Position numbers and translations under genes: made by a program
Notes under the pieces: model-generated
Database searches by the model: none
What the model was told of the DNA's origin: nothing
Seen by the model: only the letters and a program-made list of their open reading frames with translations
Part shown: positions 10,441-59,530 of the stretch, in pieces
How the letters are laid out: every line of letters begins with the position of its first letter
How positions within the stretch are numbered: the stretch's first letter is position 1
Source: an uncultured bacterium
GTDB taxonomy: Bacteria; Fidelibacterota; UBA2242
Length of the DNA stretch: 64,000 nt
Direction of reading: 5' to 3'
Assembly: GCA_964576275.1 (NCBI GenBank)
Contig: CAZNUN010000004.1
Location: 28,736-92,735, forward strand

Positions 10441-10750
10441 TTTTTGTCATTCGTGGTCATTCGGCCCGAAGCGGGCTTGTCATTCGATAGTCATTCGATT
10501 GTCATTCAATAGTCATTAGGGCATTAAGGCATTCATGCAATCATGCAATTTGAATTCTGGAATTTGCCCCGAAGGGGCTCCAGCGGATCAACCTTCAATC
10601 TACAATTGAGGTTATGTATTGTCATTTATGGTCATTGATAGTCAGGAATTGTTAGGGATAGTCATTCAATAGTCATTAAGTCAATGAGACATTCAGCCAT
10701 TCAATCATTCAATCTACAACCTCCAACCTCCAATTAGTAAAATAGCCTTG
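10441..10750. repeat. ORF-less intergenic array of degenerate ~10-bp GTCATT(C/G)(A/G)AT units in two tandem ~150-bp halves, with small GC hairpins (ggcccgaagcgggc; gccccgaaggggc)
   Basis: At least 12 GTCATT copies are directly visible. The same motif family flanks the four-helix-bundle gene at 45007-45582. Confidence 0.8.
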
Positions 10751-17416: not shown

Positions 17417-19291
17417 ATGCGCGCGCTAATTATCGGCACCGCCGGACACATCGATCACGGAAAATCGGCGCTGGTGAAAGCCCTTACCGGAACCGATCCG
17501 GACCGCCTGGCCGAAGAGCAGGAGCGCGGCATGACAATCGATATCGGTTTTGCCTTCCTGAATGACAAGATCGCTTTTATCGATGTCCCCGGGCACGAAC
17601 GTTTTATTAAAAATATGGTGACCGGCGCGGCGACGGTGGAGGTTGCCATGCTGGTGATAGCCGCGGATGACGGCGTCATGCCACAGACCCGCGAACATCT
17701 CGAGATTCTCAAATTACTGGGAATTCGCAACGGTTTAATCGTCATCAATAAAATCGACCTGGTGAAAGCCGATTGGCTGGAGATGATTACCGAAGACGTC
17801 CGGCAATTGGTCAAGGGCTCGTTCCTGGAAAATGCGCCGGTTTTCAAGGTCTCGGCCGTCACTGGAAGCGGTCTTTCCGAACTGCGTCGCTATTTAACCG
17901 AATTGCCGGCCGGAATTCCTGAAGTGCAATCTTCCGGGCTATTTCGTTTGCCGGTCGATCGCGTTTTTTCAGCCAAAGGTTTCGGCACGGTTGTAACCGG
18001 GACAGTGCTTTCCGGTGCGGTCAAAGTCGGGGATGAAGTCGAGATTATGCCGACCGGTCAGCGGGTGAAAATCCGCGGTCTGCAATCGCATAATAACACC
18101 GTTGGTTCGATTGCCAGAGGGCAGCGGGCGGCGCTCAATCTGGCCGGCGTCACGCGCTCGGAAATCGAACGCGGAATGCTGATCGTTACGCCGGGCGCTT
18201 TTCGCAAAACAAACCTGCTGACCGTTTATCTGGAATCTTTGCCGCAGTCCCCGCCGATCAAATATAATGATCAGTTGCGCTTGCACCTCGGCACCGGCGA
18301 ATATATCGTACGGATTCGTTTGATCGGGCGCGATCAATTGTTGCCGGGAACGGTTGGAATAGTCCAATTAATTTTCGGGCGACCGGTTTCCGCCGGCTTC
18401 CGGGATCGATTTATTCTGCGTTCATATTCGCCCCTTGAAACAATCGGCGGCGGCATAGTACTGGAAAACTGCCCGGAGCCGCTGCGGAAAAAAGACCTGG
18501 CGGTGGCGGCCGGACTTGAAAAGTTGGTCGCGGCCGGTTATGATGAATGGCTGAAGTGGCTGGTTCTCCGTCGCGGTAAGCAATTGACTACGACCGCAGA
18601 ATTATCGCAAGCCCTGACCGTCTCGCCGGATGAGATCGCCGCGCTGCTGACGCGATTGATTGACGGCAACGTGCTGCGCGAGATTAACGGAAAACTGATC
18701 GCCGCGGAGCAATTCAGCGCAAACACCGAAAAGATTATTACAACCCTGACGGACTTTCACCGCAAAAATCCGCTTCTGAACGGTCTGGAGAAAGCCACTT
18801 TATACGGCCAATTGCATCTGGAAGAAATGCTCGGCGACGGGCTGATTGATGAATTAAATAAGGCCGGAAAGGTTAATTTGCTTGGCGATAAATTGGCGCT
18901 GGCCGGCTTTACGCCGCAGTTGAATAACGGGCAAACCTCGCGGCAGGAACGAATTCTCGCGGAGATCGTCGGCTCCGGTCTGACTCCGCCAACGTTGACT
19001 GAACTGGCCGAAAAATTCCAGACCGACCCGGCGGAACTGCGCCAATTGATTAACCTCCTGATCGAACAACAAAAAGTGGTGCTGATCGACCGGATTTTTC
19101 CGTTCAGCACTACAACGCTTGACCAGGCTGGGGAACGGCTTACCCAATTTTTACAAAGGAAAAGCGCGGCGACGGTCAGCGAATTGAAAGATGCGCTCGG
19201 CGTTTCGCGCAAATATGCCATACCAATTTTGAATTATTTCGACCAGAAAGGAGTGACGGTGCGAAATGGTGATCTGCGCAGGCTGGGATAA
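17417..19291 (+). CDS. selB: selenocysteine-specific translation elongation factor SelB
   Basis: GTPase G1 motif (GTAGHIDHGKSALV). EF-Tu-like domains plus the C-terminal winged-helix extension typical of SelB. The last ~107 bp (19185-19291) are duplicated in divergent form at 21599-21705. Confidence 0.9.
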   Translation: MRALIIGTAGHIDHGKSALVKALTGTDPDRLAEEQERGMTIDIGFAFLNDKIAFIDVPGHERFIKNMVTGAATVEVAMLVIAADDGVMPQTREHLEILKLLGIRNGLIVINKIDLVKADWLEMITEDVRQLVKGSFLENAPVFKVSAVTGSGLSELRRYLTELPAGIPEVQSSGLFRLPVDRVFSAKGFGTVVTGTVLSGAVKVGDEVEIMPTGQRVKIRGLQSHNNTVGSIARGQRAALNLAGVTRSEIERGMLIVTPGAFRKTNLLTVYLESLPQSPPIKYNDQLRLHLGTGEYIVRIRLIGRDQLLPGTVGIVQLIFGRPVSAGFRDRFILRSYSPLETIGGGIVLENCPEPLRKKDLAVAAGLEKLVAAGYDEWLKWLVLRRGKQLTTTAELSQALTVSPDEIAALLTRLIDGNVLREINGKLIAAEQFSANTEKIITTLTDFHRKNPLLNGLEKATLYGQLHLEEMLGDGLIDELNKAGKVNLLGDKLALAGFTPQLNNGQTSRQERILAEIVGSGLTPPTLTELAEKFQTDPAELRQLINLLIEQQKVVLIDRIFPFSTTTLDQAGERLTQFLQRKSAATVSELKDALGVSRKYAIPILNYFDQKGVTVRNGDLRRLG

Positions 19292-19664
19292 GACATCGGG
19301 GGAAAAGCATTAATTGTAAAAATCAAATAGAAATGATTAAAATACTCACTAATAGTACCCGCTTTTATTAGAATTGAAGTTAAATGTAAGAAAACAGTTA
19401 TTTCCTTTAAACCAATAATGAAAGAAGGAATTTCAGTGATGTTTAACGTTGATTCGATTTTATCTGCTCCATTCTGGCCTGAGCTTGTTTGAGTAATAGC
19501 TTCAGATACGATTGATGAAGATACCATCAGAGTTCAAGCAGAGGGAATTGCCACTGGTAGATATTACAAACGGCTGATTGATTATAAGGATTTAGATTAA
19601 ATCAGCATTGAAGAAGAAACGCGCTTGAAATTCAACGAAGACGCTGAGAAATTCTTCTTATTCA

Positions 19665-20036
19665 TTGAATCACATCAAATCCGAAATGCTTTCATCGAAA
19701 GAGATTGAATTGATCGGCATGAATGTCGCGATGGAATATGAAACCGAGCGCGGGCGCAAACCAGAAGATGTATCGCTGAAAAACCTTGGTTATGATATAC
19801 ATTCTATTAGTGATACTGAAAGCGAACATCGTTATATCGAAGTAAAAGCGAGTGCCAAGGAAGGCGGAATTCTTCTGACCCAAAATGAATGGTTTATGGC
19901 ACAGAGACTAAAAGATGAGTATTGGCTTTATATAGTCAGCAATGCAATTTCAAATCCGAAACTCTTTCTTATTCAGAATCCTGCCGCTAAATTACAACCT
20001 GCCGAGGTAATTGAAACCGTGAGATACGTTATTTAA
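19665..20036 (+). CDS. DUF3883 domain protein (restriction-endonuclease-like fold), possibly the C-terminal remnant of a longer gene
   Basis: GYDIHSISDTESEHRYIEVKAS…LTQNEW…YWLYIV matches the DUF3883 core (D…EVK). Upstream 19440-19660 holds short broken reading frames, suggesting truncation. Confidence 0.6.
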   Translation: MNHIKSEMLSSKEIELIGMNVAMEYETERGRKPEDVSLKNLGYDIHSISDTESEHRYIEVKASAKEGGILLTQNEWFMAQRLKDEYWLYIVSNAISNPKLFLIQNPAAKLQPAEVIETVRYVI

Positions 20037-20081
20037 AACCGGAATAAAAGTAACATTATCACCACCGATTGAAATAACACA

Positions 20082-21449
20082 ATGAATAACGAAGAATTAA
20101 GATTATTAATCCAACAGGGAGAATCGGAAACGATTGAGTTTAAGGAAAACTTCGGGAATGAAGCTATTGAATCTGCCGGAGCTTTCGCCAATACCCGCGG
20201 TGGACTAATTCTGATCGGAGTTAACAGACATGGTCATATAAATTGTGTTCAGGCGACTCAGGAAACGTTAAAAGATTGGGCTAATCAGGTTGGACAATGT
20301 AGTGAACCCACATTTACGCCATTATTTGAAATTGTTCCGACTGACAACGGTAATGTTGTCGCTATTCACATCAGTGAATATCCGCTCAAACCGGTTTCGA
20401 TTCGCGGCAGATTCTATCGACGGGTCAATGCCAGCAACCATCAGATGATACCAGATGAAATCGCACAGATGCACCTTTATTCAATCGGTTCCAGCTATGA
20501 TGCCATCTCAAGTCCGAACGCAACTCTCGATGATATATCAGAAGATAAAATCAGAGATTATTTGCAGAAGGCTAACGCTACCGGACGCCGGAATTATGAT
20601 ATCAGTCGACCACCTCTTCAAATACTTGAAAAAGTTGAATTGATCAAATCGGGCAAGCCGACTATTGCTGCAGTTCTATTATTTGCAAAAGAACCTCATA
20701 ATAAAATTCACCAGGCTATCGTACATTGCGGGCGATTTAAGGAACTCACTACTATTATCGATGACCGATTGATAGAAGGTACAATTATTGAGCAGATTGA
20801 CGAAGTTATGGCTTTCCTGCGGAAGAACACCAGCGTTCGTTTTGTATTTACCGGAAAACCCGAACGTGAAGAAGTCTGGGATTATCCATTGGAAGCTCTG
20901 CGGGAAGCCGTAACGAATGCCATCTGCCACCGCGACTATGGCAATACCAGCGATATTCAAATTAAAGTTCACGACGATTATCTGACAATTTGGAATCCGG
21001 GCGGACTATTACCGGGGATGTCAATCGAGGAATTGTATGATCCTAATCATTCTTCCAAACCCCGCAATCGGCTAATCGCCCAGGTTTTTAATGACATTAA
21101 ATTGATCGAAAAATACGGTTCCGGCATCCAGCGTATCTTAACCGAATGTGCAAAAGTCGGCATTCCGGCCCCATCGTTTGAAGAGAAGTTCGGTGGCTTT
21201 CTGGTAACCTTCCGAAAGGATATTTACACTGAAGACCATCTTAAAGCCATGGGATTGAACGAACGACAGATAAAGGCCGTAGTATTTACAAAAAAGAATG
21301 GTAAAATAACAAATAAACAATATCAGGAAATAACCGGCATCCAGAAACGACAAGCCACTGTTGACCTTCAGGATATGGAAAATAAAGGAATACTCACAAA
21401 GGTCGGAAAAACCGGTAGAGGAACCTTTTACACCCTAAAGGGGCATTAA
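20082..21449 (+). CDS. COG2865-type ATP-binding protein: Schlafen/AlbA_2 DNA-binding domain, HATPase_c_4-like domain and C-terminal wHTH
   Basis: AlbA_2 hallmark (ESETIEFKENFGNEAIESAGAFANTRGGLILIGV) at the N-terminus. C-terminal HTH (…ITNKQYQEITGIQKRQATVDLQDMENKGILTKVG). Confidence 0.7.
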   Translation: MNNEELRLLIQQGESETIEFKENFGNEAIESAGAFANTRGGLILIGVNRHGHINCVQATQETLKDWANQVGQCSEPTFTPLFEIVPTDNGNVVAIHISEYPLKPVSIRGRFYRRVNASNHQMIPDEIAQMHLYSIGSSYDAISSPNATLDDISEDKIRDYLQKANATGRRNYDISRPPLQILEKVELIKSGKPTIAAVLLFAKEPHNKIHQAIVHCGRFKELTTIIDDRLIEGTIIEQIDEVMAFLRKNTSVRFVFTGKPEREEVWDYPLEALREAVTNAICHRDYGNTSDIQIKVHDDYLTIWNPGGLLPGMSIEELYDPNHSSKPRNRLIAQVFNDIKLIEKYGSGIQRILTECAKVGIPAPSFEEKFGGFLVTFRKDIYTEDHLKAMGLNERQIKAVVFTKKNGKITNKQYQEITGIQKRQATVDLQDMENKGILTKVGKTGRGTFYTLKGH

Positions 21450-21488
21450 TGGGGCAAAAGGGGCATTAAAGGGGCGTTAATGGGGCAC
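21440..21488. repeat. tandem ~11-bp repeat (ggggcattaat-like, ~5 units) overlapping the 3' end of the COG2865 gene
   Basis: ggggcattaatggggcaaaaggggcattaaaggggcgttaatggggcacag. Confidence 0.7.
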
Positions 21489-21598
21489 AGACCTTCTGAA
21501 CAGATTGGACATCATTGTCCGAAAAACCCGAAATGCTTCTAATAAATGATACCAAATACACCAGTAAAACAAGACAATAAAATGGATATCACTCCTTT

Positions 21599-21705
21599 TG
21601 AAAGATGTGCTCGGCGTTTCGCGCAAATACGCCGTGCCGCTCCTGAATTATTTCGACCGGAAAGGCGTAACGGTGCGCAGCGGCGACCTGCGAAAATTAG
21701 GATAA
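21599..21705 (+). pseudogene. displaced native 3'-end fragment of selB (attR-like remnant)
   Basis: 107 bp aligns to selB 19185-19291 at ~85% identity, differing mostly at synonymous third positions. It encodes …[34 protein letters not shown] versus …[34 protein letters not shown]. It has high GC like the host. Confidence 0.85.
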
Positions 21706-21724: not shown

Positions 21725-22918
21725 ATGAATATAAAAGTATTAATTAAAAAAGATCGTGAGAAGTCGCTCCTGCGTCATCATCCCTGGCTTTTTTCGGGGG
21801 CGATCGAGAAAGTCGTCGGTGAACCGCAAGCGGGCGAGACGGTCGAGTTGCGGGCGTATGACGGTTGTTTCCTGGGACATGGCGCCTGGTCGCCGCAATC
21901 CCAGATTATCGTGCGGGTCTGGAGTTTAGATGAGAACGAAGCCATTGATGCGGACTTCTTCCGGCGCCGATTGGAACTGGCTGTCAACGAGCGCCAGTCG
22001 CTTTTAATTCCGGGTATGACCGATGCCGTGCGCCTGGTTAATGCCGAATCGGACGGTCTGCCGGGCTTGATTGTCGACCGGTACGGCGATTTCCTGGTCG
22101 TTCAATTTTTATCGGCCGGAACGGAACACTGGCGCGATACAATTCTGGCAACCTTGGCTGACCTGAAACCGGTCGCCGGAATTTACGAACGCTCGGATGT
22201 GGATGTGCGCGAGAAGGAAGGTTTACCGCTGCGCCAGGGTTTGCTCTGGGGCAGCGAGCCGCCGGAATTCATCACGATTCTGGAAAATTCGCGGCGCTTC
22301 TTAGTCGATGTGCGCCGCGGGCACAAGACCGGCTTTTACCTTGATCAGCGCGACAACCGGCAAAAGATTACGGAATTCGCCGCCGGACGCGAAGTGCTGA
22401 ATTGTTTTGCTTATACCGGCGGATTCTCGGTTGCGGCGCTGGCGGCCGGGGCGACTAAAGTGACAAACGTGGAATCTTCCGCTGATGCATTGGAATTGCT
22501 GAATCGCAATGTTGAGCTGAATGATTGCGAACCGACCAAAGTCGAGAACCTGGCCGATGACGTGTTCCTGGCGTTGCGCAAATTTCGCGACCAGGGACGC
22601 TCTTTCGACCTGATCGTGCTCGACCCGCCCAAGTTTGCCGAATCGAAGAGCCAACTCGAACGCGCCAGTCGCGGCTACAAGGACATCAACCTGCTGGCCT
22701 TCAAACTCCTGCGCCCGGGCGGAGTGCTGTTCACCTTTTCCTGTTCGGGGCAGATGACGCCGGAACTTTTCCAGAAGATCGTGGCCGATGCCGCTCTGGA
22801 TGCCGGAAAAACCGCCCAGATTATCGCGCGGCTTGAGCAGTCCGCCGATCATCCGACGGCGCTAAATTTCCCGGAAGGCCATTACCTCAAGGGACTGGTC
22901 TGTAGAACTGTTAAATAG
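21725..22918 (+). CDS. rlmI: 23S rRNA (cytosine1962-C5)-methyltransferase RlmI-like (PUA + class I SAM MTase)
   Basis: N-terminal HHPWLFSGAI (YccW/RlmI). SAM motif (VLNCFAYTGGFSVAA) and DPPKFA motif. Confidence 0.85.
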   Translation: MNIKVLIKKDREKSLLRHHPWLFSGAIEKVVGEPQAGETVELRAYDGCFLGHGAWSPQSQIIVRVWSLDENEAIDADFFRRRLELAVNERQSLLIPGMTDAVRLVNAESDGLPGLIVDRYGDFLVVQFLSAGTEHWRDTILATLADLKPVAGIYERSDVDVREKEGLPLRQGLLWGSEPPEFITILENSRRFLVDVRRGHKTGFYLDQRDNRQKITEFAAGREVLNCFAYTGGFSVAALAAGATKVTNVESSADALELLNRNVELNDCEPTKVENLADDVFLALRKFRDQGRSFDLIVLDPPKFAESKSQLERASRGYKDINLLAFKLLRPGGVLFTFSCSGQMTPELFQKIVADAALDAGKTAQIIARLEQSADHPTALNFPEGHYLKGLVCRTVK

Positions 22919-33430: not shown

Positions 33431-33545
33431 TATCTGTTAGTTGCGAGTTACGAGTTACGAGTTTACAGTTTCCGGTTTACAGTTACCAGTTTACAGTTTG
33501 TCATCACGCTTTACGACTTACGCCTTACGAATTCACCTTTTACCA
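33431..33545. repeat. dispersed intergenic repeat element built from GTTACGAG and GTTTACAGTT short tandem motifs
   Basis: gcgagttacgagttacgagtttacagtttccggtttacagttaccagtttacagtttgtcatcacgctttacgacttacgccttacg. Related copies lie at 22941-23016, 23391-23468 and 24866-24905. Confidence 0.7.
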
Positions 33546-45032: not shown

Positions 45033-45078
45033 TGATGGTCATTGATAGTCATTTATAGTCATTTGTGGTCATTGATGG
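45007..45078. repeat. left GTCATT repeat array (7 × ~10-bp units) flanking the four-helix-bundle gene
   Basis: gtcatacgattgtcatttaacgtcattgatggtcattgatagtcatttatagtcatttgtggtcattgatgg. Confidence 0.8.
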
Positions 45079-45552
45079 AGACTGATTGTTACTATTAAGA
45101 AGAGGATTTGCCGGATTATCGGAATTTTCTGCTGATGAATCGGCGCCATACTTCGATGATGGTTCATCGACCTGTTTACCGATAATGCTGATATAGTTAT
45201 TTATTTTTACGGATAATTTCTCAATATCGTTTGTCAACTTTAAATATTCACTCTCAGTTATCAGTTTCCGATTATTAGCCTTTTTAAGCCAGCATTTTGT
45301 TTCTGACAAAGAACCTCTGGCATAATAACAAAAATGCTTATTTTCATTAAAGTGATAACGTCCAAAACCTTCCGCCAGATTCGCGGCTACTGAATCAATA
45401 GCATCAATTAATTGAATCCCGACGGTCTGTTTTTCTAAATAACTCCATTTTTGTACGATTTGCCAGATTTGTTCGCCTATCTCATTTGCCAGATTGTAAA
45501 CAATTAAATCATCTAATTGCATGAGAATAATCCTTCTGACAATAAATGACAA
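45049..45552 (-). CDS. four-helix-bundle protein (23S rRNA intervening-sequence protein family, TIGR02436/PF05635)
   Basis: …YNLANEIGEQIWQIV…SVAANLAEGFGRYHFNENKHFCYYARGSLSETKCWL… is the characteristic family core. It is inserted between two catabolic genes and flanked by inverted GTCATT arrays. Confidence 0.75.
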   Translation of the reverse strand: MSFIVRRIILMQLDDLIVYNLANEIGEQIWQIVQKWSYLEKQTVGIQLIDAIDSVAANLAEGFGRYHFNENKHFCYYARGSLSETKCWLKKANNRKLITESEYLKLTNDIEKLSVKINNYISIIGKQVDEPSSKYGADSSAENSDNPANPLLNSNNQSPSMTTNDYK

Positions 45553-49426: not shown

Positions 49427-49939
49427 TTGCCGGAACTAACTTCCAGTTCTCAAATCATCCTGACCGGCGGCATTGGAGCCGGTAAATCTACTTATGCCAA
49501 AAAATTACTTCAAAAAGCCAATCTGCAAGTCGCCGGTTTGGTAACTGAAAGAGTAATTGAAGATAGTGTCACTGTTGGTTATGCTATGCGAGAAATTGGC
49601 GGCGAAAGCCACATCTTCGCCCACCGCAAGTTTATCGATAAACCGCAATTTTATGAATACGGTCTCGATTTAACGGTCTTTGAAAATATCGGTTGTGATA
49701 TATTAAAACGAGCGGTGCATTCCGGCTTGCCAATCCTGATAGACGAACTGGGCGTGATGGAGCAAAATGCCGCGAAATTCTGTAAAGCAGTCCATGAAAT
49801 TATTTCCGGCGACAAGCCTTATTTTATTGTCATTCAGCAACGCGCCTTAAATTTCTGGCTGGGCGGGATCAGGCATGGGGAAGTGGTAGAAGTAACGAGG
49901 GAGAATCGCGAACAATTGGTTATTTATCACGCTGATTAG
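49427..49939 (+). CDS. THEP1-like P-loop nucleoside-triphosphatase
   Basis: Walker A (ILTGGIGAGKSTYA). ~170 aa. Walker B-like (ILIDELG). The 3' end is duplicated at 50621-50743. Confidence 0.65.
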   Translation: MPELTSSSQIILTGGIGAGKSTYAKKLLQKANLQVAGLVTERVIEDSVTVGYAMREIGGESHIFAHRKFIDKPQFYEYGLDLTVFENIGCDILKRAVHSGLPILIDELGVMEQNAAKFCKAVHEIISGDKPYFIVIQQRALNFWLGGIRHGEVVEVTRENREQLVIYHAD

Positions 49940-50231
49940 GTTCGATATCGGAATCAGGTAAAATTTGTCTGAGATGCCGAACCGTTAAAATCGAAATCTG
50001 TTTTAATTCTATCCGATAAATGATCCGGTAGTTGCTAAATATTAATTCCCGGATCGAGTTATCGTTTATTTCAGGAACGATGCGGCCACTATACGGAAAG
50101 GACTTCAATTGCGCCACTAATTCGAACAATTGTTTAACCCAGACACGTGCGGCTTTAGGCTTATCGCTTGCGATGTACCTGGCAATTTCAGTTACACGTT
50201 CAACGGACAGAGGAGACCAGATTATCTTCAC
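49920..50231 (-). CDS. type II toxin, ParE/RelE family
   Basis: 103 aa. The pattern (…VERVTEIARYIASDKPKAARVWVKQLFELVAQLKSFPYSGRIVPE…REL…YRIIYRI…ILTVRH) is typical of ParE/RelE. It is translationally coupled to the upstream Phd gene. Confidence 0.8.
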   Translation of the reverse strand: MKIIWSPLSVERVTEIARYIASDKPKAARVWVKQLFELVAQLKSFPYSGRIVPEINDNSIRELIFSNYRIIYRIELKQISILTVRHLRQILPDSDIEPNQRDK

Positions 50232-50521
50232 TGGCTGATTCTGTCAAGAATTGTCGCTTTTGCCACAGAGTCAGAAATTCCCTGACCTTCCTCGATTTGT
50301 GATTTGGCTAATTGAATATCCTTCAATAATTCCAATTTATCGAGGAGCGCCTCATATTCTGAAACGTCCATCAAGACGGCACTGCTTTTACCATTCTGAG
50401 TTATCAGTAACGGTCTTTTGGTTTTTTGGATATGATCCAGATAAGATTTGATGTTAGAGCGAAATTCGCTGAGCGGCTTTATATCTTTATCAAGTTGTAT
50501 TCTTTGCATCACGTTCTCCAA
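50228..50521 (-). CDS. type II antitoxin, Phd/YefM family
   Basis: 97 aa; Phd/YefM pattern (…LSEFRSNIKSYLDHIQKTKRPLLITQNGKSSAVLMDVSEYEALLDKLELLKD). Confidence 0.85.
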   Translation of the reverse strand: MENVMQRIQLDKDIKPLSEFRSNIKSYLDHIQKTKRPLLITQNGKSSAVLMDVSEYEALLDKLELLKDIQLAKSQIEEGQGISDSVAKATILDRISQ

Positions 50522-50620
50522 ATTAACGCTTAAATGTACGCTATATTGTACGATATTTCAACCTTTATCTCGATCTTTTGCGCTGATGGCGGAAAGGTTC
50601 AGCCGCGACGTGTGCTCCTC

Positions 50621-50743
50621 GCCGGTGAAAAACCATACCTGATCGTCATCCAGCAACGTACTTTAAATTTCTGGCTGGGCGGGATCAGGCATGGGGAAAT
50701 GAGCATTATCGGCGGTGGCTCTGTTTCTTGGAATAACACGTAA
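50621..50743 (+). pseudogene. displaced 3'-end fragment of the THEP1-like NTPase gene
   Basis: It encodes …GEKPYLIVIQQRTLNFWLGGIRHGEMSIIGGGSVSWNNT*. A 36-bp exact core (ttaaatttctggctgggcgggatcaggcatggggaa) is shared between 49847-49882 and 50663-50698, and the flanks diverge at synonymous sites. Confidence 0.75.
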
Positions 50744-50745
50744 AA

Positions 50746-51735
50746 TCAACCAAATATTTCCTCGTCGGAATGCTTACGGCATTGCCGGCAGTAAAGTCCG
50801 GAATTCTGTACAAAGAGCCGCTTTTCATAGCGCTTCAACTGCCGCAGGTAGGCGTTGCCGGTTACCGCGCCGCAATGCGGGCAAATGTGATTGACGATGC
50901 GCTGTTTGTCACCTGGGCGGATAGTGTCGCGCAGGAAGACGCCCTCTTGCCGGATAATACGACGATCGCGATCAGAAAATAGGTCCGGTCCATAGATATG
51001 ACCGTCAATATCGAGGAAGGCTAAGTTCAGCGGCGCGCCGCAACGCCAGCATTTGCCCGGTAGAACGTAAAGCGCTTTCCGGTACAAAGGCCCTCCGCAT
51101 TCCGGGCAACGCCTTTTGGAACAATGAATAATCAGCTCCGGGTTGATTGTCGGGCTGGCAACCATTTCTTCGAGGTCTTCCGCCGACCGGACGCGGAAAA
51201 TCAGCAGAGGGATTTGACGCTGACTGGTGAATAGCAAAACATTCTCATCCGGTGAGTGCGCCACGACGATTTCGATCAGAACGTTCGGTTCGCCGCGCTC
51301 ATCCAGCAGACTGATGTCCGGGCGACATGCGCCCAATTCCTGCTCTGTGACGATCGTTTTCACCTTATCAAAGAAATCAAGAGAGTGTTGGTCACCGCAT
51401 AGTTGGCATTTCCAACGCAGAACGAGAGCGACTTGCCGACTCAGCAGATTTTGCAGTTTTTCGAACAGCAGGCGTTTTGCTAGATAATGCAGAACGGTTT
51501 CAGCATTGCATTTCGCGCCGGGAGAATGCGCAAAGTGGTGACGCTTTTGATCGCCTTTGCGGGCGATGACCGACTGACGGCAGACCGGACAAACACAGCC
51601 GCAGGCCAGCCCTTTTCCGACCTGCGACACATGCCGCAGGAAACCTTCCTTCTCGGCAAAAGGGATTTTAATCGCACCGGTTTCGCCTGGCTGATTATAC
51701 CGGGCAACGATGGCTTTTATCTGGGAGATGTCCAT
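50746..51735 (-). CDS. Cys-rich CoiA-like protein (N-terminal CPxC…HFAH zinc finger, PD-(D/E)xK-like core, three C-terminal CxxC ribbons)
   Basis: CGCVCPVCRQSVIARKGDQKRHHFAHSPGAKC resembles the CoiA N-terminus. PDISLLDERGEPNVLIEIVVAHS is nuclease-like. CPECGG…CWRCG, CPHCG and CRQCR are also present. Confidence 0.45.
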   Translation of the reverse strand: MDISQIKAIVARYNQPGETGAIKIPFAEKEGFLRHVSQVGKGLACGCVCPVCRQSVIARKGDQKRHHFAHSPGAKCNAETVLHYLAKRLLFEKLQNLLSRQVALVLRWKCQLCGDQHSLDFFDKVKTIVTEQELGACRPDISLLDERGEPNVLIEIVVAHSPDENVLLFTSQRQIPLLIFRVRSAEDLEEMVASPTINPELIIHCSKRRCPECGGPLYRKALYVLPGKCWRCGAPLNLAFLDIDGHIYGPDLFSDRDRRIIRQEGVFLRDTIRPGDKQRIVNHICPHCGAVTGNAYLRQLKRYEKRLFVQNSGLYCRQCRKHSDEEIFG

Positions 51736-51837
51736 CAGTTAAGACCGGTTTTATTCACGACAGAATTTTAAACAATTGCCGGATTAATTGGAAGAATTTT
51801 GTCTGATCGGTTGAGCACTTCCGACTGGCGGCTTTAA

Positions 51838-52209
51838 TCAGGTGGATTGTGTGGTAAGAGTGTCCAATAAGTCCGATTGAGTTGTGACCGCGCATTTAAA
51901 ACCGTAAACCTCCGCCATAGTACTGATAATTTTAACGGCAAACAGGTTTCTTTCGGTCGTCATAATCGTAACGCCGCCCAGGAAATTTGATTTCAACATA
52001 ATGAGGGTGTCTCTGATCCTGAAAAGGTCGGAAGGCGGCGGGGTGGATTCAATTTTTCGTAAATCCACGATAATATGGAAATGGGGATCGAACTTTTTCG
52101 ATTTGATGAGGCTTTTAATTGAGGCGGAAATGGAATGCAAATCAGCGGCGCCTTCTTCCTTGACCACGACGGTTCGGTGTTGCTGAAATATTTTATAGGA
52201 GTAGCCCAC
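51838..52209 (-). CDS. small conserved hypothetical protein, paralogue 2 of a tandem pair downstream of copA
   Basis: 123 aa. It is ~40% identical to the adjacent 122-aa ORF (MxYSYKIxxxxxTVVVKxEGA…FDPHxxIIVDLRK…KIISTMA). It has no Cys/His metal-binding motifs. Confidence 0.45.
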   Translation of the reverse strand: MGYSYKIFQQHRTVVVKEEGAADLHSISASIKSLIKSKKFDPHFHIIVDLRKIESTPPPSDLFRIRDTLIMLKSNFLGGVTIMTTERNLFAVKIISTMAEVYGFKCAVTTQSDLLDTLTTQST

Positions 52210-52249
52210 TATCTGAAAATCTCTAAAAATGTATCCTTAAAGACTTCAT

Positions 52250-52618
52250 TTAATTGTCTGCTTCCAGTCTGTCTAATATGGGCGAGTTGGTGACAACCTT
52301 AACTGTCATCCCGTGAACCGCCGCCATGGTAGAGATAATTTTGGCGACGGCAAGAGCCGTTTCCTTTTGTACTATGGTGATTGAGGCGCGAAAGGCGGAT
52401 TTCATGCTAATTAAAGTATCCTTGAGCATAAGAGGATTGGGCGCGTAAAATTGCAGCTCCATTTTTCTTAAATCAACGATAATGTCATAATGCGGGTCAA
52501 AATTTTCATCAGCCGCCAGGGATTTCATCGTGGCGACACTGGCTTTGATGCTTACGGCTCCTTCAGCCTTTACCACAACGGTTTTTTGCTCCTTATAAAT
52601 TTTATATGAATATGGCAT
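52250..52618 (-). CDS. small conserved hypothetical protein, paralogue 1 of a tandem pair downstream of copA
   Basis: 122 aa, paralogous to 51838-52209. It lies on the same strand directly downstream of copA. Confidence 0.45.
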   Translation of the reverse strand: MPYSYKIYKEQKTVVVKAEGAVSIKASVATMKSLAADENFDPHYDIIVDLRKMELQFYAPNPLMLKDTLISMKSAFRASITIVQKETALAVAKIISTMAAVHGMTVKVVTNSPILDRLEADN

Positions 52619-52686
52619 GCGTTTTTATTTTAATGTCTGAATTAGTTTTTCCTTAATCACTCGTGATAATATATAGTATCTCAGAT

Positions 52687-54900
52687 CTAATAATCGGCTT
52701 TAAATTTTCTTAAACCAAGCGAGAGTGTGATTACAGTCACAGAAGAAAGCGCCATTGCCAGACCGCCGAGCTCCGGTCGGAAGGTGATTCCGAAAAAGGG
52801 GAAAAGCAGACCGGCGGCGACCGGCACCAGCGCCGTATTGTAGGCAAACGCCCAGAAAAGATTCTGGCGAATCCGCCGTATGACCTTGCGGCTGAGTTGC
52901 AGGGCTACGCTGACGTCTTTCAGATCGTTCCGGATCAGAACAATATCGCCGCTCTCAAGCGCCACATCGGTTCCCGAGCCGATCGCTATCCCGATGTCAG
53001 CCTGAGCTAAGGCGACGGCGTCGTTAATGCCGTCTCCGACAAAAGCCACAACTTCACCTTTCTGCTGAAGTTCATAAATAGCGTCCGCCTTATCCTGCGG
53101 CAGGACTTCCGCAAGCACATTATCAATCCCGACCTGCGCCGCGATGGCCTGCGCAGTGTGTTGATTATCGCCGGTAAGCATGGCTACTTTCAGGTCGTCG
53201 GACTTCAATTTGTTCACGGCAGAAATGGCGGAATCTTTCAAAGTATCGGCGATGGCGATCGCCCCGCTGATCATTTTATCGATGGCGATTAAAACCGTCG
53301 TCTTGCCGGCGGCGTTGTATTGCTGAACAACTCCGGCGATTTCCGCAGAAATTGTTTTCCGGTTTGCGCGGCAAAATGCTTCCGTGCCGATGAGCACTTC
53401 ATGATTTTCCACGTAACCCGAAATGCCCCGACCGCCGAAAGCCACAAAATTTTCGGCGGCTGGAATGGCAATTTTTTGCTCTTTGGCATAATTGACTATC
53501 GCGGCGGCCAGCGGATGCTCGGAATTGCTCTCGAGTGCGGCGGCAAAACGCAGTAATTCTTCCGATGAAATTCCGACCGGAAAAACATCGGTAACGCTCG
53601 GTTTGCCATTCGTCAGTGTTCCGGTTTTATCAAAGACAACGCTTGTGATACGCGGCGCGATTTCCAGAGCCGTGCCGTTTTTAATCAGAATGCCGAGTTC
53701 CGCGCCGCGCCCGATGCCGACGGTCACGGCGGTCGGAGTCGCCAGTCCGAGAGCGCATGGGCAGGCGATCACCAAAACGGAAATCAGAGTCGTCAGCGAA
53801 AAAAGTAAAGTTTGTCCGACAATGAAATACCAATAGGTAAATGCAAGTGTGGCAATCGTTAAAATCACCGGAATAAAATAACTGACCGCCACGTCCGCCA
53901 GGCGTTGAACCGGAGGACGACTGCCCTGCGCCTGTTCGACTAAGCGTATGATTTGCGCCAAAATCGTATCGCGACCGACGCGTTCAGCCCGGAATTGCAG
54001 GACGCCGTTCTGATTTAAAGTGCCGCCGCTGACCTTGTCGCCGGTCTGCTTGTAAACCGGTAAGGATTCGCCGGTCAGCATGGATTCGTCGATGTAACTT
54101 TCGCCGCTAACCACGATTCCGTCAACCGGAATGCGTCCGCCTGGTTTGACTATTACGACGTCGCCCGGCACGACCGTTTCGAGCGGAATTACCGTTTCAA
54201 TACCGTCGCGGATCACGCTGGCGGTTTTAGGCTGGAGACCGAGCAGGCGTTTGATGGCGCCGGAAGTTTTACCTTTGGCGCGGGCTTCCAGAAAACGACC
54301 GAGCGTCAGAAAAGTCGCCAGAAAAATCGCCGTCTCGTAAAACATATAATCGCGGGTCAGCACAATCTCGAAAGTGCCCAGCAGGCTGGCGAGAAACGCC
54401 ACGCCGATACCCATGGCGTACATAACGTCCATGTTCAAACTACGATTGCGGAGCGCCTGCCAGGCGGCTTTGAAAATCGGGTAACTCAGGTAAATGAAAA
54501 CCGGCGTGGCTAAAATAAGCATCAGATAGGAAATCGCAAATGGCAATCTGAAATCGACAAACATCGGAATCATTAAAATGACGCCGGCGATGAAACCGAT
54601 AATTATGCGGCGCATTTTGATCCGCAATTCCCGGCGGAGAACTTCATCCTGATCGGTTGCGAGTTCTTCTTCCCGGCCAAGATACTGATAGCCGGCGGAT
54701 TCGATGGCGGTTTTGGCGGCTTCCACAGAAAAATGTTGGCTATCGAAAGTCAGGTAGGCTTTCTCGTTAGCCAGATTGACACTTACGCTTTGAATTCCTG
54801 CGATTTGGCTGACTGCATTTTCAACGGCTTTGGCGCACATGGCGCAATGCATGCCGCCGATTTTGATAACTATCTGGTCTTTTATTTGTGTTGATGGCAT
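52687..54900 (-). CDS. copA: copper-translocating P-type ATPase
   Basis: N-terminal HMA domain ([12 protein letters not shown]). CPC motif ([11 protein letters not shown]). DKTGTLT phosphorylation site. [10 protein letters not shown]. Confidence 0.9.
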
Positions 54901-57950: not shown

Positions 57951-58919
57951 TTGAAGATGATGAATATGAAAGTAAAAGAACTACTATTTGATTATATAAA
58001 TCCTTCGATTGAATACCGGATATTGAACATGGATGCTTATCATGCTCTTGGAGTTATACCAAATGGAAAATTCGACTTAATTATAACTTCTCCTCCTTAT
58101 AACATTGGCAAAGAGTACGAAACTAAAACTTCTATCGAGAAATATCTTGAAACACAAGAAGATATCATTAGAGAATTAATACGTGTTTTATCTGAACGAG
58201 GAAGTCTCTGTTGGCAAGTTGGAAATTTTGTGGACAAGGGAGAGATATTTCCTCTTGATATTTATTACTATCAGATATTTAAGAAATATGGATTGAAACT
58301 TCGCAATCGTATTATCTGGCATTTCGGGCATGGATTACATGCTTCTAAACGGTTTTCTGGTAGATATGAAACCATTCTATGGTTTACCAAAACTGATAAA
58401 TACATTTTTAATCTTGATGCCGTTCGAGTTCCTTCGAAATATCCAGGAAAGTTGCATTTTAAAGGACCTAATAAAGGAAAGCCTTCAGGAAATCCACTAG
58501 GTAAGAATCCATCTGATATATGGAAAGTCGTGATTAAAGATTGGGAAAATGAGTTATGGGACATTCCAAACGTTAAATCCAATCATCCCGAAAAAACTGA
58601 ACATCCATGTCAATTTCCTATTGAGTTAGTAGAACGTTGTGTTTTGGCTCTAACTAACGAAAAAAGTTGGGTTCTTGATCCTTTTGCTGGAGTTGGTTCT
58701 GCAATAATTGCAGCATTAAAAAATGGACGTAATTGTATAGGGATTGAGAAACAATATCACTATTGTGAAATCGCAAATAAAAGAATTGAAGATTTAAAGG
58801 AAGGAATGTTAAAAATAAGACCAATTAACAAACCTGTTCATAAACCTTCTGAGAACGATAAAGTTGCTCGAGTTCCAAAGGAATGGATGAAATTAGCAAA
58901 GAATGGTTATCTCATATGA
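57951..58919 (+). CDS. DNA methyltransferase, beta-class N4-cytosine/N6-adenine (motif IV SPPY)
   Basis: DLIITSPPYNIGKEY motif IV, followed by a SAM-binding motif I near the C-terminus (DPFAGVGS), the beta-class order. AT-rich composition. Confidence 0.85.
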   Translation: MKMMNMKVKELLFDYINPSIEYRILNMDAYHALGVIPNGKFDLIITSPPYNIGKEYETKTSIEKYLETQEDIIRELIRVLSERGSLCWQVGNFVDKGEIFPLDIYYYQIFKKYGLKLRNRIIWHFGHGLHASKRFSGRYETILWFTKTDKYIFNLDAVRVPSKYPGKLHFKGPNKGKPSGNPLGKNPSDIWKVVIKDWENELWDIPNVKSNHPEKTEHPCQFPIELVERCVLALTNEKSWVLDPFAGVGSAIIAALKNGRNCIGIEKQYHYCEIANKRIEDLKEGMLKIRPINKPVHKPSENDKVARVPKEWMKLAKNGYLI

Positions 58920-59530
58920 AAATAGCACAAAAATATTCGCATTTAAATGGTGAAGAATATCTTATTGTTCACCATCCGGGTCTGTATAAAGAAATAAAGG
59001 CCGTCATTAAAAATATAGACGCCGATAAAATTAAAACAAAGGTGAGTAAAGAGATAAGAAAAAAAGGCAACAAACTCTATAGTCCGAAAGAATTGAATAG
59101 AACATTTAATCGCGAATTCTCTACGAAAAATTGGACGGAAAGTCGCTATAATTATTATATTACTCTCAACCGAGAATTAATGGAAAAAAGTATCTCGATG
59201 TCTGCTTCGGAGCAGAAAAAATTTCTACTAGAGAATGGTGAAAATACTCCAATATTTAGTTATAATCAGACTGATTTTGTCAAAGAAAAGGTCGCTATCG
59301 AGGTACAGTTTGGAAAATATTCATTTGTGGCTTATGATTTGTTTGTTAAGCATATGCTGTTTTATTCAGGTGGTGTAATAAATTTAGGTATCGAGATACT
59401 TCCCACGAAAAATATGCAATGTCAAATGTCAAGCGGAATAGCATACTATGAAGGAGAAGTATATAATGTCATGAGGCAGGGACGAAATAATCCTCCGGTT
59501 CCCCTGCTAATCTTAGGAATCGAACCTTAA
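58916..59530 (+). CDS. type II restriction endonuclease, BglII-like family
   Basis: The start overlaps the MTase stop (ATGA). DFVKEKVAIEVQFGKYSFVAYDLF parallels the BglII catalytic block DFGKRDTLVEVQFSNYPFLL (E-x-Q). C-terminal PLLILGIE parallels PIRLVGLIE. Confidence 0.65.
   Translation: MKIAQKYSHLNGEEYLIVHHPGLYKEIKAVIKNIDADKIKTKVSKEIRKKGNKLYSPKELNRTFNREFSTKNWTESRYNYYITLNRELMEKSISMSASEQKKFLLENGENTPIFSYNQTDFVKEKVAIEVQFGKYSFVAYDLFVKHMLFYSGGVINLGIEILPTKNMQCQMSSGIAYYEGEVYNVMRQGRNNPPVPLLILGIEP

Follow-up and report, generated by a model that had tools for sequence, protein, structure and literature searches.

A toxin-antitoxin operon between heteroallelic copies of an NTPase gene end in an uncultivated bacterial phylum: a possible single-crossover insertion

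The window, by which we mean the whole 64-kb stretch of DNA analysed here, contains an intact NTPase_1 (THEP1-like) gene of 170 aa (49427..49939, forward strand; PF03266, E 1e-30, profile positions 1-163 of 168), whose syntenic orthologues are 61-83% identical to it and which converges on a CoiA_N-like gene (50746..51735, reverse strand; PF25164) and a P-type ATPase gene. Between these convergent genes lies a toxin-antitoxin (TA) pair on the reverse strand, in which a Phd/YefM antitoxin gene (50228..50521; PF02604 PhdYeFM_antitox, E 4.2e-20) stands directly upstream of, and in the same operon as, a ParE/RelE-family toxin gene of 103 aa (49920..50231; PF05016 ParE_toxin, E 7.9e-16, residues 3-90), the two overlapping by 4 nt (50228-50231). 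An earlier reading of this DNA, made without database searches and hereafter called the sequence-only reading, had placed such a translationally coupled pair between two copies of the NTPase gene end, and both the Pfam matches and the overlap bear it out; the antitoxin, which it gave as 97 aa, is probably 93 aa long, with its start at the ATG at 50509, in agreement with gene calls and homologues. A promoter-like site (TTGAAA, 17 nt, TACATT; 50533..50561, reverse strand) precedes the operon, and to judge from these features the cassette is a self-contained type II Phd/YefM-ParE operon with a predicted promoter of its own and translationally coupled genes.

The operon recurs elsewhere as a discrete unit. 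A segment of ~640 nt (49936..50575, reverse strand), starting just 5' of the -35 box and reaching the penultimate codons of parE, is 73-76% identical to positions 1443-2084 of contig L088 and 4662-5296 of contig L094; the ends of the three units coincide, whereas their flanks are unrelated, and the antitoxin-toxin order, the promoter-like site and an operator-like CGTACA...CGTACA repeat are common to all three. The canonical length of the ParE family is 97-99 aa, and the last four residues here are specific to this context. Each of the other two units lies between direct repeats of unrelated local sequence, of 30 nt in L088 and of 150 nt, comprising a promoter and a gene 5' end, in L094; the L088 repeat is the weaker evidence of the two. 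The L088 repeat falls within a GC-rich hairpin region where several contigs break, and it may belong to a multicopy element. Among 682 ParE homologues, the best outside this lineage are 74-75% identical and carry the names Marinimicrobia or Fidelibacterota, the group to which the present bacterium probably belongs as well, and a search of IMG/VR viral contigs for relatives of the family found none. We also considered an integron gene cassette and rejected it, as attC, IntI and an array are all lacking, and the shared unit ends inside the last parE codons with unrelated sequence beyond.

The cassette is bracketed by a direct repeat of 80 nt (49806-49885 and 50622-50701; 84% identity, spacing 816). 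The first copy lies within the intact NTPase gene and has an orthologue-like left flank; the second is part of a 5'-truncated NTPase fragment (50578..50701, forward strand) whose weak protein-level homology, with a 6-codon indel, reaches back to 'FCA' (~50578). Both contain an exact core of 36 nt, TTAAATTTCTGGCTGGGCGGGATCAGGCATGGGGAA, at 49847-49882 and 50663-50698, and their reading frames run ...NFWLGGIRHGEVVEVTREN... to a stop codon and ...NFWLGGIRHGEMSIIGGGSVSWNNT to a stop codon, as had been read before. The repeat is thus real, although the ~120 bp that the gene end was said to share is an overestimate: the gene's true last 54 nt (49886-49939) have no counterpart in copy 2, and the divergence described as synonymous on both sides of the core is mostly synonymous on the left and gives way on the right to unrelated sequence. 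The 69-codon open reading frame around copy 2 (50534-50743) is probably not a gene.

The distribution of differences along the repeat indicates that the copies are not simple duplicates. In the 42 nt left of the core, the two copies differ at 13 positions; copy 1 differs from the closest relative, L006, at 5 of these 42 and copy 2 at 8, the latter ranging from 8 to 13 across the other lineages, such that outside the core the distance between the two copies is as great as that of copy 2 from other lineages. Within the core, by contrast, the copies show no difference in 36 nt, against 5-10 of 36 with every relative (P ~2e-6 for no mismatch in 36 nt, given 13 of 42 in the left flank). Because the core holds synonymous variants that occur in these two copies only, we regard it as a recombination patch and not as the outcome of conservation, and the contrast of 13/42 with 0/36 mismatches led us to reject simple neutral divergence of a fresh tandem duplication. 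These data support the derivation of the two copies from different alleles, and an identity patch bordered by diverged flanks is suggestive of reciprocal chimerism, without amounting to proof of it.

Beyond the core, the two copies part. Copy 1 mismatches L006 at 2 of the next 12 positions, and copy 2 mismatches at 9 of 12. The tail of the intact gene (49883..49939, forward strand; VVEVTRENREQLVIYHAD and a stop codon) is ancestral-like as far as NREQL (49918), corresponding to the VVxVTxxNRxxL... tails of P0003, P0009 and L028, although homology to the closest relatives ends at 49887-49896, and it overlaps the 3' end of parE by 20 nt. This NTPase-like tail (VVEV..NREQL) therefore runs straight into the cargo behind copy 1. 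Copy 2 continues instead into 50699..50745 (forward strand; MSIIGGGSVSWNNT and a stop codon), which abuts the stop codon of the CoiA_N-like gene; the 42 nt after its core show no similarity to NTPase tails or to any relative.

Comparison with relatives identifies the cargo as an insertion, since they have a single NTPase copy and no TA pair. Relative to L006, homology breaks off at 49893 and returns at 52714, which defines a variable segment (49894..52713), and in L006 the P-type ATPase gene directly follows the NTPase gene. Three other relatives (L014, L016 and L024) carry different genes in this position, and in these sequences the space 3' of the NTPase gene is a variable hotspot whose content differs in every lineage. 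The CoiA_N-like gene is an older resident of the hotspot, with a homologue bearing an internal deletion in L024, next to the ATPase gene, and it is this resident DNA that follows copy 2. No remnants of an NTPase tail were seen at the right end of the hotspot (51700-52760).

These comparisons bear on two simpler accounts. Copy 2 could be a decayed tandem NTPase paralogue, with the TA pair having landed between paralogues and the core having been homogenised by gene conversion, and NTPase pseudogene fragments do occur in another lineage (L028). We consider this very improbable: tandem NTPase genes occur in none of 38 metagenomic and 30 genomic loci, all syntenic relatives having a single gene; the fragment abuts the TA promoter and retains no residual 5' sequence; and the parallel case at selB, a single-copy gene, would be left out. 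Still further from likely, to the point that we give it hardly any weight, is an assembly artefact in which two strain variants were joined at the shared 36-mer. Short-read contigs L100-L102 do end within or next to 50663-50704, yet at least 13 contigs, derived from several samples and assemblers, show the cassette-repeat arrangement, JGI contigs of 235-262 kb from several samples and an NCBI assembly span the repeat in identical arrangement, and a k-mer join cannot create the junction between TA promoter and stub.

The same architecture at selB, which the sequence-only reading had also reported, is confirmed. The intact selB gene (17417-19291) ends in 108 nt (repeat copy 1, 19184..19291, forward strand) that recur with 81% identity at 21598..21705 (copy 2, forward strand), and copy 2 stops 19 nt 5' of an RlmI-like methyltransferase gene (21725-22918). 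The 2.3-kb islet between them (19292..21597, forward strand) carries a NOV_C-domain gene (19665-20036), a Schlafen AlbA_2/HATPase_c_4 gene (20082-21449) and, at its right end, phased GGGGC repeats (21436-21490). In relatives, this site holds a methyltransferase (L103) or a defence island (L105), and similarity between the window and either relative is negligible 3' of the selB stop codon. Over 80-92 nt, copy 2 shares 92% identity with the selB ends of these two relatives, compared with 77% for selB overall and 77-81% for the flanking genes. At repeat positions 1-83 the relatives are matched by copy 2 at nine sites and by copy 1 at two, whereas at positions 98-102 they are matched by copy 1 at four and by copy 2 at none (Fisher P 0.011 at the best breakpoint, uncorrected for the choice of breakpoint, from ~15 informative sites of which four lie in two adjacent codons); after the switch point, the copies differ from each other at 6 of 18 positions. 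The sequences are thus suggestive of a reciprocal mosaic in which foreign lineages are matched by copy 2 over most of its length and by copy 1 at its end, in line with the earlier statement that a displaced native end had been left behind. Together, the mosaic and the contrast between 92% and 77-81% identity lead us to suggest that a single import brought in the islet along with the end of copy 1 and most of copy 2.

Of 51 genes surveyed at the protein level, only the NTPase and selB genes have C-terminal duplicates, and two such sites in 64 kb, each an island between direct repeats that include the 3' region of the target gene, with a single copy in the empty sites of relatives, recall the decayed remnants of integrative and conjugative or mobilizable elements (ICE/IME) known as CIMEs. 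In such an account, a tyrosine or serine recombinase would have acted at a 3' att site and supplied a replacement gene end, the integrase having since been lost or acting in trans; CIMEs and their accretion at gene 3' ends are documented, and they retain attL and attR at the 3' end of the target gene (PMC5704250). The layout is classical, with an exact core between diverged arms, and the selB islet offers candidate arm-type sites in the GGGGC repeats at its right end. Moreover, the junction of NTPase copy 2 (50669-50708) and that of selB copy 1 (19272-19312) match in 33 of 42 columns, the best of 1472 window segments, and a motif, GGGATMAGRCAT(N0-2)GGGG, occurs in only three places in the window, albeit as a pattern written from those same sites. 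A shared junction motif, for which the sequence-only reading had advised a search, is accordingly present in these sequences but weak. A 16-nt match to the selB junction at 41.8 kb was set aside as an AT-rich chance match outside the motif.

Several observations make this account unlikely in our view. No recombinase or transposase family was matched by any called or scanned open reading frame of the window, which upholds the earlier observation that no recombinase accompanies the cassettes, and no integrase was found in the relatives' loci at the NTPase and selB sites. Neither core has recombinase-type dyad symmetry above that of shuffled sequences. A search of IMG/VR viral contigs for an attP, with degenerate patterns built on the selB end and on the NTPase core region, gave 0 matches, and the NTPase and selB stubs appear on no viral or element contig. 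The motif extension lies in copy 2 at the NTPase gene and in copy 1 at selB, which misfits one simple att logic, and the relatives' islands lack the motif. Restoration of a gene by a site-specific element requires no extended target homology, whereas at least 85 nt lie upstream of the crossover at both genes; the 0.64-kb cargo bears no trace of other element genes; and the related TA cassettes are bracketed by unrelated repeats. The proposal of dedicated machinery that targets gene ends consequently fares poorly: beyond the asymmetric cores and the superfluous homology, one of the repeats bracketing the related cassettes is a gene 5' end, and the restriction-modification pair at 57951-59530, which forms a third islet of the window, lacks flanking direct repeats, while the position at gene ends can be accounted for by selection. 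Given the weak junction motif, a trans-acting site-specific system or mobilisation in trans may nonetheless be involved.

The reading that we judge best, and that we hold with somewhat less than even confidence, is a Campbell-type single-crossover insertion of imported cargo together with a 3'-terminal stub of the adjacent gene. The sequences themselves show the anatomy of the locus, its status as an insertion in comparison with relatives, the mosaic of two alleles in the repeats and the lack of any recombinase gene in the window, whereas a circular intermediate, an order of events and a kind of enzyme are what we infer. Incoming DNA from a related lineage would have carried the TA cassette and a ~190-nt 3'-terminal NTPase stub (from 'FCA...' to the stop codon) and, as a circle, would have recombined with the resident NTPase gene inside the present 36-nt core through one reciprocal crossover. 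The products would be an intact gene (copy 1), in which the core joins the resident 5' part to an imported tail; the cargo in the middle; and a dead stub (copy 2), in which the core joins an imported 5' stub to the tail of the resident gene. The exact core would then represent the crossover or heteroduplex tract, ending where homology ends, and recombination would most likely have been driven by homology (RecA-type, on a short arm of ~80% identity) and not by a dedicated integrase; at both loci, homology flanks the proposed crossover on either side. The selB islet may have arisen in the same mode. Because the host gene stays intact only if the insertion runs through a terminal fragment of it, the position at gene ends would reflect survivorship and selection, and because popping out from repeat to repeat would delete the antitoxin gene, the TA pair would stabilise its own insertion.

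Single-crossover insertion makes specific predictions. The TA circle should have the junction ...CAGCAACGTACT + core + GTGGTAGAAGTA and the popped-out NTPase allele the junction ...CAGCAACGCGCC + core + ATGAGCATTATC; at selB, the circle should read ...GCGGCGACCTGCGCAGGCTGGGATAAGACATC and the empty site ...GGTGATCTGCGAAAATTAGGATAAAAGTTG; and a donor should carry an NTPase gene with a ...VVEVTRENREQL tail beside the TA pair. The donor arrangement, an NTPase gene with the VVEV tail next to the TA pair, was not found elsewhere, the best ParE relative being only 74-75% identical, and the predicted popped-out or pre-insertion NTPase ending in ...HGEMSIIGGGSVSWNNT was absent from the homologue search, the 90% cluster and an exact look-up of 15 billion proteins. 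The reading also has its costs: it requires that the resident NTPase already had the odd tail (MSIIGGGS...) that is present in no relative; RecA-type recombination works very inefficiently with ~100 nt of ~80% identity; and a circular intermediate presupposes an earlier repeat-flanked state in the donor. At the NTPase locus alone, gene conversion after insertion accounts for the core equally well.

That last point bears on a further account, in which an illegitimate or one-sided insertion (homology-facilitated illegitimate recombination, HFIR, or insertion with long target duplication) was followed by local recombination between the copies. Either the TA pair was inserted with a foreign NTPase stub, or the resident 5' part was overwritten by a donor gene with its TA pair, and short-patch gene conversion, or an allelic replacement ending inside the repeat, later produced the 36-nt identity. 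Restriction-modification addiction modules with target duplications of ~30-500 bp and without mobility genes are found in many bacteria (PMC2853133, PMC3874152) and offer a documented precedent, as do HFIR and the merodiploids generated by transformation (PMC3240628, PMC3784515). This account is also consistent with the resemblance of copy 1 to the uninterrupted orthologue through VVEV (the 2 of 12 mismatches to L006 past the core) and with the position of copy 2 beside the resident CoiA-like gene. It would, however, take two or three separate events where a single crossover takes one, and conversion between 100-nt repeats of ~70-80% identity is itself unlikely; the 6 of 18 differences between the selB copies after the switch point contradict a shared origin of those segments. 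A plain target duplication is further disfavoured because the native tail would then follow copy 2, not copy 1, and because its repeats are expected to be nearly identical, with 93-100% documented (PMC2853133) against 81-84% here. We therefore assign insertion of this kind a low probability.

Among known systems, the insertion of restriction-modification units with long target duplication (Nobusato et al. 2000; Furuta, Abe & Kobayashi 2010, PMC2853133) is defined by a unit of <20 kb without mobility genes between direct repeats of >30 bp that align once in an insert-free genome (PMC2853133), all of which we find here, with the comparator genomes being other lineages and not the same species. 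The likeness lies in a small addiction or defence unit that lacks mobility genes and in its flanking direct repeats, which are tens to hundreds of bp long, are single in insert-free relatives and often overlap the 3' end of a neighbouring gene, and a repeat-based life cycle has been hypothesised for such units (PMC2853133). The cargo here, in contrast, is a TA pair (NOV_C and Schlafen-like genes at selB) and not a restriction-modification unit, and in place of near-identical duplicates the repeats, at 81-84% identity, form a reciprocal mosaic, being heteroallelic with an exact 36-nt patch and with the gene tail behind the upstream copy. CIMEs share with the present loci a recombinase-less island between direct repeats that include a gene 3' region, for which mobilisation in trans is conceivable, and their accretion logic could account for the hybrid copy 2; they differ in that no att core features were found here, the homology arms are much longer than the core, the cargo is only a 0.64-kb operon, and the host phylum is uncultivated, with no cognate integrase or ICE system known. 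Campbell integration of laboratory suicide plasmids likewise leaves an intact copy if the fragment is 3'-terminal, then the cargo and then a 5'-truncated copy, with the two copies being reciprocal chimeras around the crossover, although the homology here is short (~100-190 nt) and diverged (~70-85%), and no natural source of circles is known. Finally, TA 'genomic islets' such as ccdO157 also consist of a bare type II TA operon between core genes in some lineages only (PMC2654758).

We know of no description of flanking heteroallelic gene-end repeats for islets of the ccdO157 type. Bare TA and defence units are often chromosomal without mobility genes, and the route by which they arrive is poorly understood. 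The present case introduces no new principle; it is a well-documented instance, from an uncultivated phylum, of an event of known kind, encountered twice in the window. A more general and doubtful hypothesis is that small addiction and defence cassettes of this lineage behave as 'gene-end hitchhikers', using a stub of the adjacent core gene as a portable homology arm, popping out by recombination between the repeats, and re-entering related genomes by single crossover with no recombinase of their own; the ~40-nt motif that the junctions weakly share could be a sign of a factor acting in trans. Were this true, the long-unexplained insertion of addiction modules with long target duplication would gain a concrete mechanism and its first heteroallelic footprints from these loci, as the repeat copies would be reciprocal chimeras of two lineages' alleles instead of duplicates and thus the footprint of the insertion event itself. 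If general, insertion of this kind would explain islets at gene ends, hotspots beside particular core genes, and the transfer of addiction modules between diverged genomes without recombinases.

Downstream of the intact THEP1-like NTPase_1 gene (49427-49939; PF03266, E 1e-30), and on the opposite strand to it, lies an ordinary Phd/YefM-ParE toxin-antitoxin (TA) module, in which the ParE-family toxin gene (49920-50231) overlaps by 4 nt an antitoxin gene (50228-50521) that probably starts at an ATG giving 93 aa. An 80-nt piece of the NTPase gene (copy 1, 49806-49885) is present again beyond this module in a 5'-truncated fragment (copy 2, 50622-50701), at 84% identity and with an exact 36-nt core (49847-49882 and 50663-50698); at the protein level, similarity of copy 2 can be traced upstream to 'FCA' (~50578). 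The sequence-only reading had correctly recognized the repeat around the TA pair and its exact core, but the boundaries needed correcting: the last ~120 bp of the gene had been said to occur twice, whereas the final 54 nt have no second copy, and the supposed NTPase end in copy 2 is a post-core sequence (MSIIGGGSVSWNNT*) unlike any NTPase tail, with mismatches at 9 of 12 positions right after the core, whose right edge coincides with the end of homology between the copies. The arrangement is no assembly artefact, since it recurs unchanged in 13 or more contigs, some of them 235-262 kb long, that derive from several samples and assemblers; contigs built from short reads simply end at the 36-mer. 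Such bracketing repeats are rare in the 64-kb window, with C-terminal duplicates for 2 of 51 genes. Repeats of other kinds include a 14-nt unit (AGTTACGAGTTTAC-like) that forms a short tandem array after his-operon-like genes (33439-33536) and an intergenic 47-nt pair spaced 160 nt apart (10497-10703); a 23S_rRNA_IVP (four-helix-bundle) gene (45049-45552) sits inside a conserved sugar/amino-sugar catabolism cluster and is kept in relatives.

The distribution of differences along the NTPase repeat indicates that it is a mosaic, not a duplicate. In the 42-nt left flank of the core, copy 2 has 13 differences from copy 1 and 8-13 from other lineages, and copy 1 has 5 from the relative's contig L006, as a normal orthologue. 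Within the core the copies show no differences, yet 5-10 of its 36 sites differ from every relative, and it carries synonymous variants found in the two copies only; given the flank divergence, the probability of 0 differences in 36 nt is ~2e-6. Because the flanks are diverged, the core identical and its variants unique to both copies, we interpret the core as the stretch over which two different alleles recombined or were converted. Taken by itself, this locus could also reflect an insertion with later short-patch gene conversion; a pre-insertion NTPase allele was looked for and not found.

Eight related NTPase lineages (61-83% identity), located in contigs, each have a single NTPase, share an upstream synteny of PALP enzyme, NamZ and a 224-aa membrane protein, and lack the TA module. 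Downstream, L006 has nothing inserted and a P-type ATPase directly next, L014 has short-chain dehydrogenase genes, L016 an HSDR_N/DUF5655 gene, and L024 (1-2854) a RAYT-like (IS200-type) transposase gene between 34-nt REP-like repeats, along with a DUF1016-like gene and a CoiA-like gene missing ~670 nt internally. Since this content differs per lineage and homology between the window and L006 ends at 49893 and restarts at 52714, we consider the space after the NTPase gene a hotspot. Between the window's CoiA-like and ATPase genes lie tandem paralogous genes of 123 and 122 aa (51838-52209 and 52250-52618; 48% identical), absent from L006 and L024 and without Pfam or PADLOC match. Each lineage has lost the end of the NTPase C-terminal tail from a different point: the ancestral form (VVxVTxxNRxxL...) is kept in the homologues P0003 and P0009 and in a pseudogene on L028, and window copy 1 keeps it up to NREQL. 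The family evidently decays repeatedly; the L028 pseudogene (9926-10260), from a more distant lineage, is 5'-truncated and frameshifted and adjoins an unrelated gene.

At selB, the final 108 nt (copy 1, 19184-19291) are present again at 21598-21705 (copy 2; 81% identity), stopping 19 nt short of an RlmI-like methyltransferase gene, and the copies enclose two genes that resemble parts of defence systems, one with a NOV_C domain and one of the Schlafen AlbA_2/HATPase_c_4 type. The same site holds a methyltransferase in the relative L103, and in L105 (1911-7914) a defence-type island of a HATPase_c_3 protein, two unknown genes and an MmeI-type methyltransferase directly follows selB, which marks the selB 3' end as a hotspot across the clade. 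Copy 2 matches the end of selB in L103 and in L105 at 92%, compared with 77% for whole selB against both and 81% for the downstream genes against L103. Agreement with the relatives changes along the repeat: within positions 1-83 they share the base of copy 2 at 9 sites and that of copy 1 at 2, and within positions 98-102 the count is 4 for copy 1 and 0 for copy 2 (Fisher P = 0.011, taking the best breakpoint). The pattern appears to be reciprocal chimerism of the kind that a single crossover would leave if the end of the resident selB recombined with an imported selB stub; the islet would then have arrived together with the end of copy 1 and most of copy 2. At the right end of this islet, five phased GGGGC(A/G)TTAA-like units with a period of 10-11 nt (21436-21490), starting in the last Schlafen-like codons ~110 nt before copy 2, may be protein-binding sites.

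The TA cassette is a discrete ~640-nt unit (49936-50575), 73-76% identical to its nearest relatives, found in two different genomic contexts on other Marinimicrobia-like contigs (L088 1443-2084 and L094 4662-5296); names on the closest ParE and SelB homologues point to Marinimicrobia/Fidelibacterota. Its ends coincide across the three contexts, from ~15 nt upstream of the -35 box to the penultimate parE codons, and each context separately supplies the final ParE residues and stop codon. Upstream of phd there is a promoter-like sequence (TTGAAA, 17 nt, TACATT), together with a CGTACA...CGTACA repeat that is conserved. Both related cassettes also sit between direct repeats of local, unrelated sequence: 30 nt in L088 (1285-1314 and 2100-2129), within GC-rich, hairpin-forming DNA at which contigs break, and ~150 nt in L094 (4360-4507 and 5373-5520; 88-94% identical), covering the promoter of an HTH gene and its first codons.

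A Campbell-type single crossover, in which circular DNA enters a resident gene, would account in one step for the copy bearing the gene-like tail, the copy adjoining resident DNA and the identity patch; next to NTPase copy 2 the resident DNA is a CoiA-like gene, also found in L024. Plain target duplication fits less well, as it would predict the reverse tail arrangement and near-identical repeats; repeats at documented restriction-modification insertions are 93-100% identical (PMC2853133). We think that the crossover was more likely homology-driven than site-specific because no recombinase genes were found within the 64-kb window, no dyad symmetry was found in the NTPase or selB cores, homology at both loci reaches 85 nt or more upstream of the crossover point, the related TA cassettes have unrelated flanking repeats (one a gene 5' end), and the window's restriction-modification islet has none. 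This last islet, an N6_N4 methyltransferase and BglII-like endonuclease pair (57951-59530) between a Tricorn-like protease gene and a 495-aa gene, is absent from L006 and, unlike the TA and selB islets, lacks flanking direct repeats. A site-specific, trans-acting system is kept alive by one result, a ~40-nt likeness between the junctions of NTPase copy 2 (50669-50708) and selB copy 1 (19272-19312), identical in 33 of 42 columns and the best-scoring of 1472 window segments. The shared junction motif that the sequence-only reading had proposed to seek is to that extent present, but it is missing from the relatives' islands, its extension is not in the copy where a simple att logic shared by both loci would place it, and it occurs at three window places only, a count that is not independent because the pattern was derived from those very sites. 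The donor states were looked for and not found, nor were element-borne stubs in viral contigs.

Of the three closest known architectures, one is 'insertion with long target duplication', in which restriction-modification units, addiction modules that carry no mobility genes, lie between ~30-500-bp repeats often overlapping a gene 3' end, by a mechanism described as unknown (PMC2853133, PMC3874152); the present repeats differ in being heteroallelic chimeras. CIMEs, decayed integrative elements retaining attL and attR at a gene 3' end (PMC5704250), are close in architecture, but their att or integrase features were not found here; bare TA 'genomic islets' (PMC2654758) are also close. The gene-end-targeting integration first proposed is partly borne out, in that selB shows the same architecture and no recombinase was found in the window, but no targeting is needed: entry through a terminal fragment would leave the gene whole, whereas an internal fragment would destroy it, and a gene-end bias would therefore follow from this difference itself. 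Once inserted, the TA module would penalise pop-out between the repeats.
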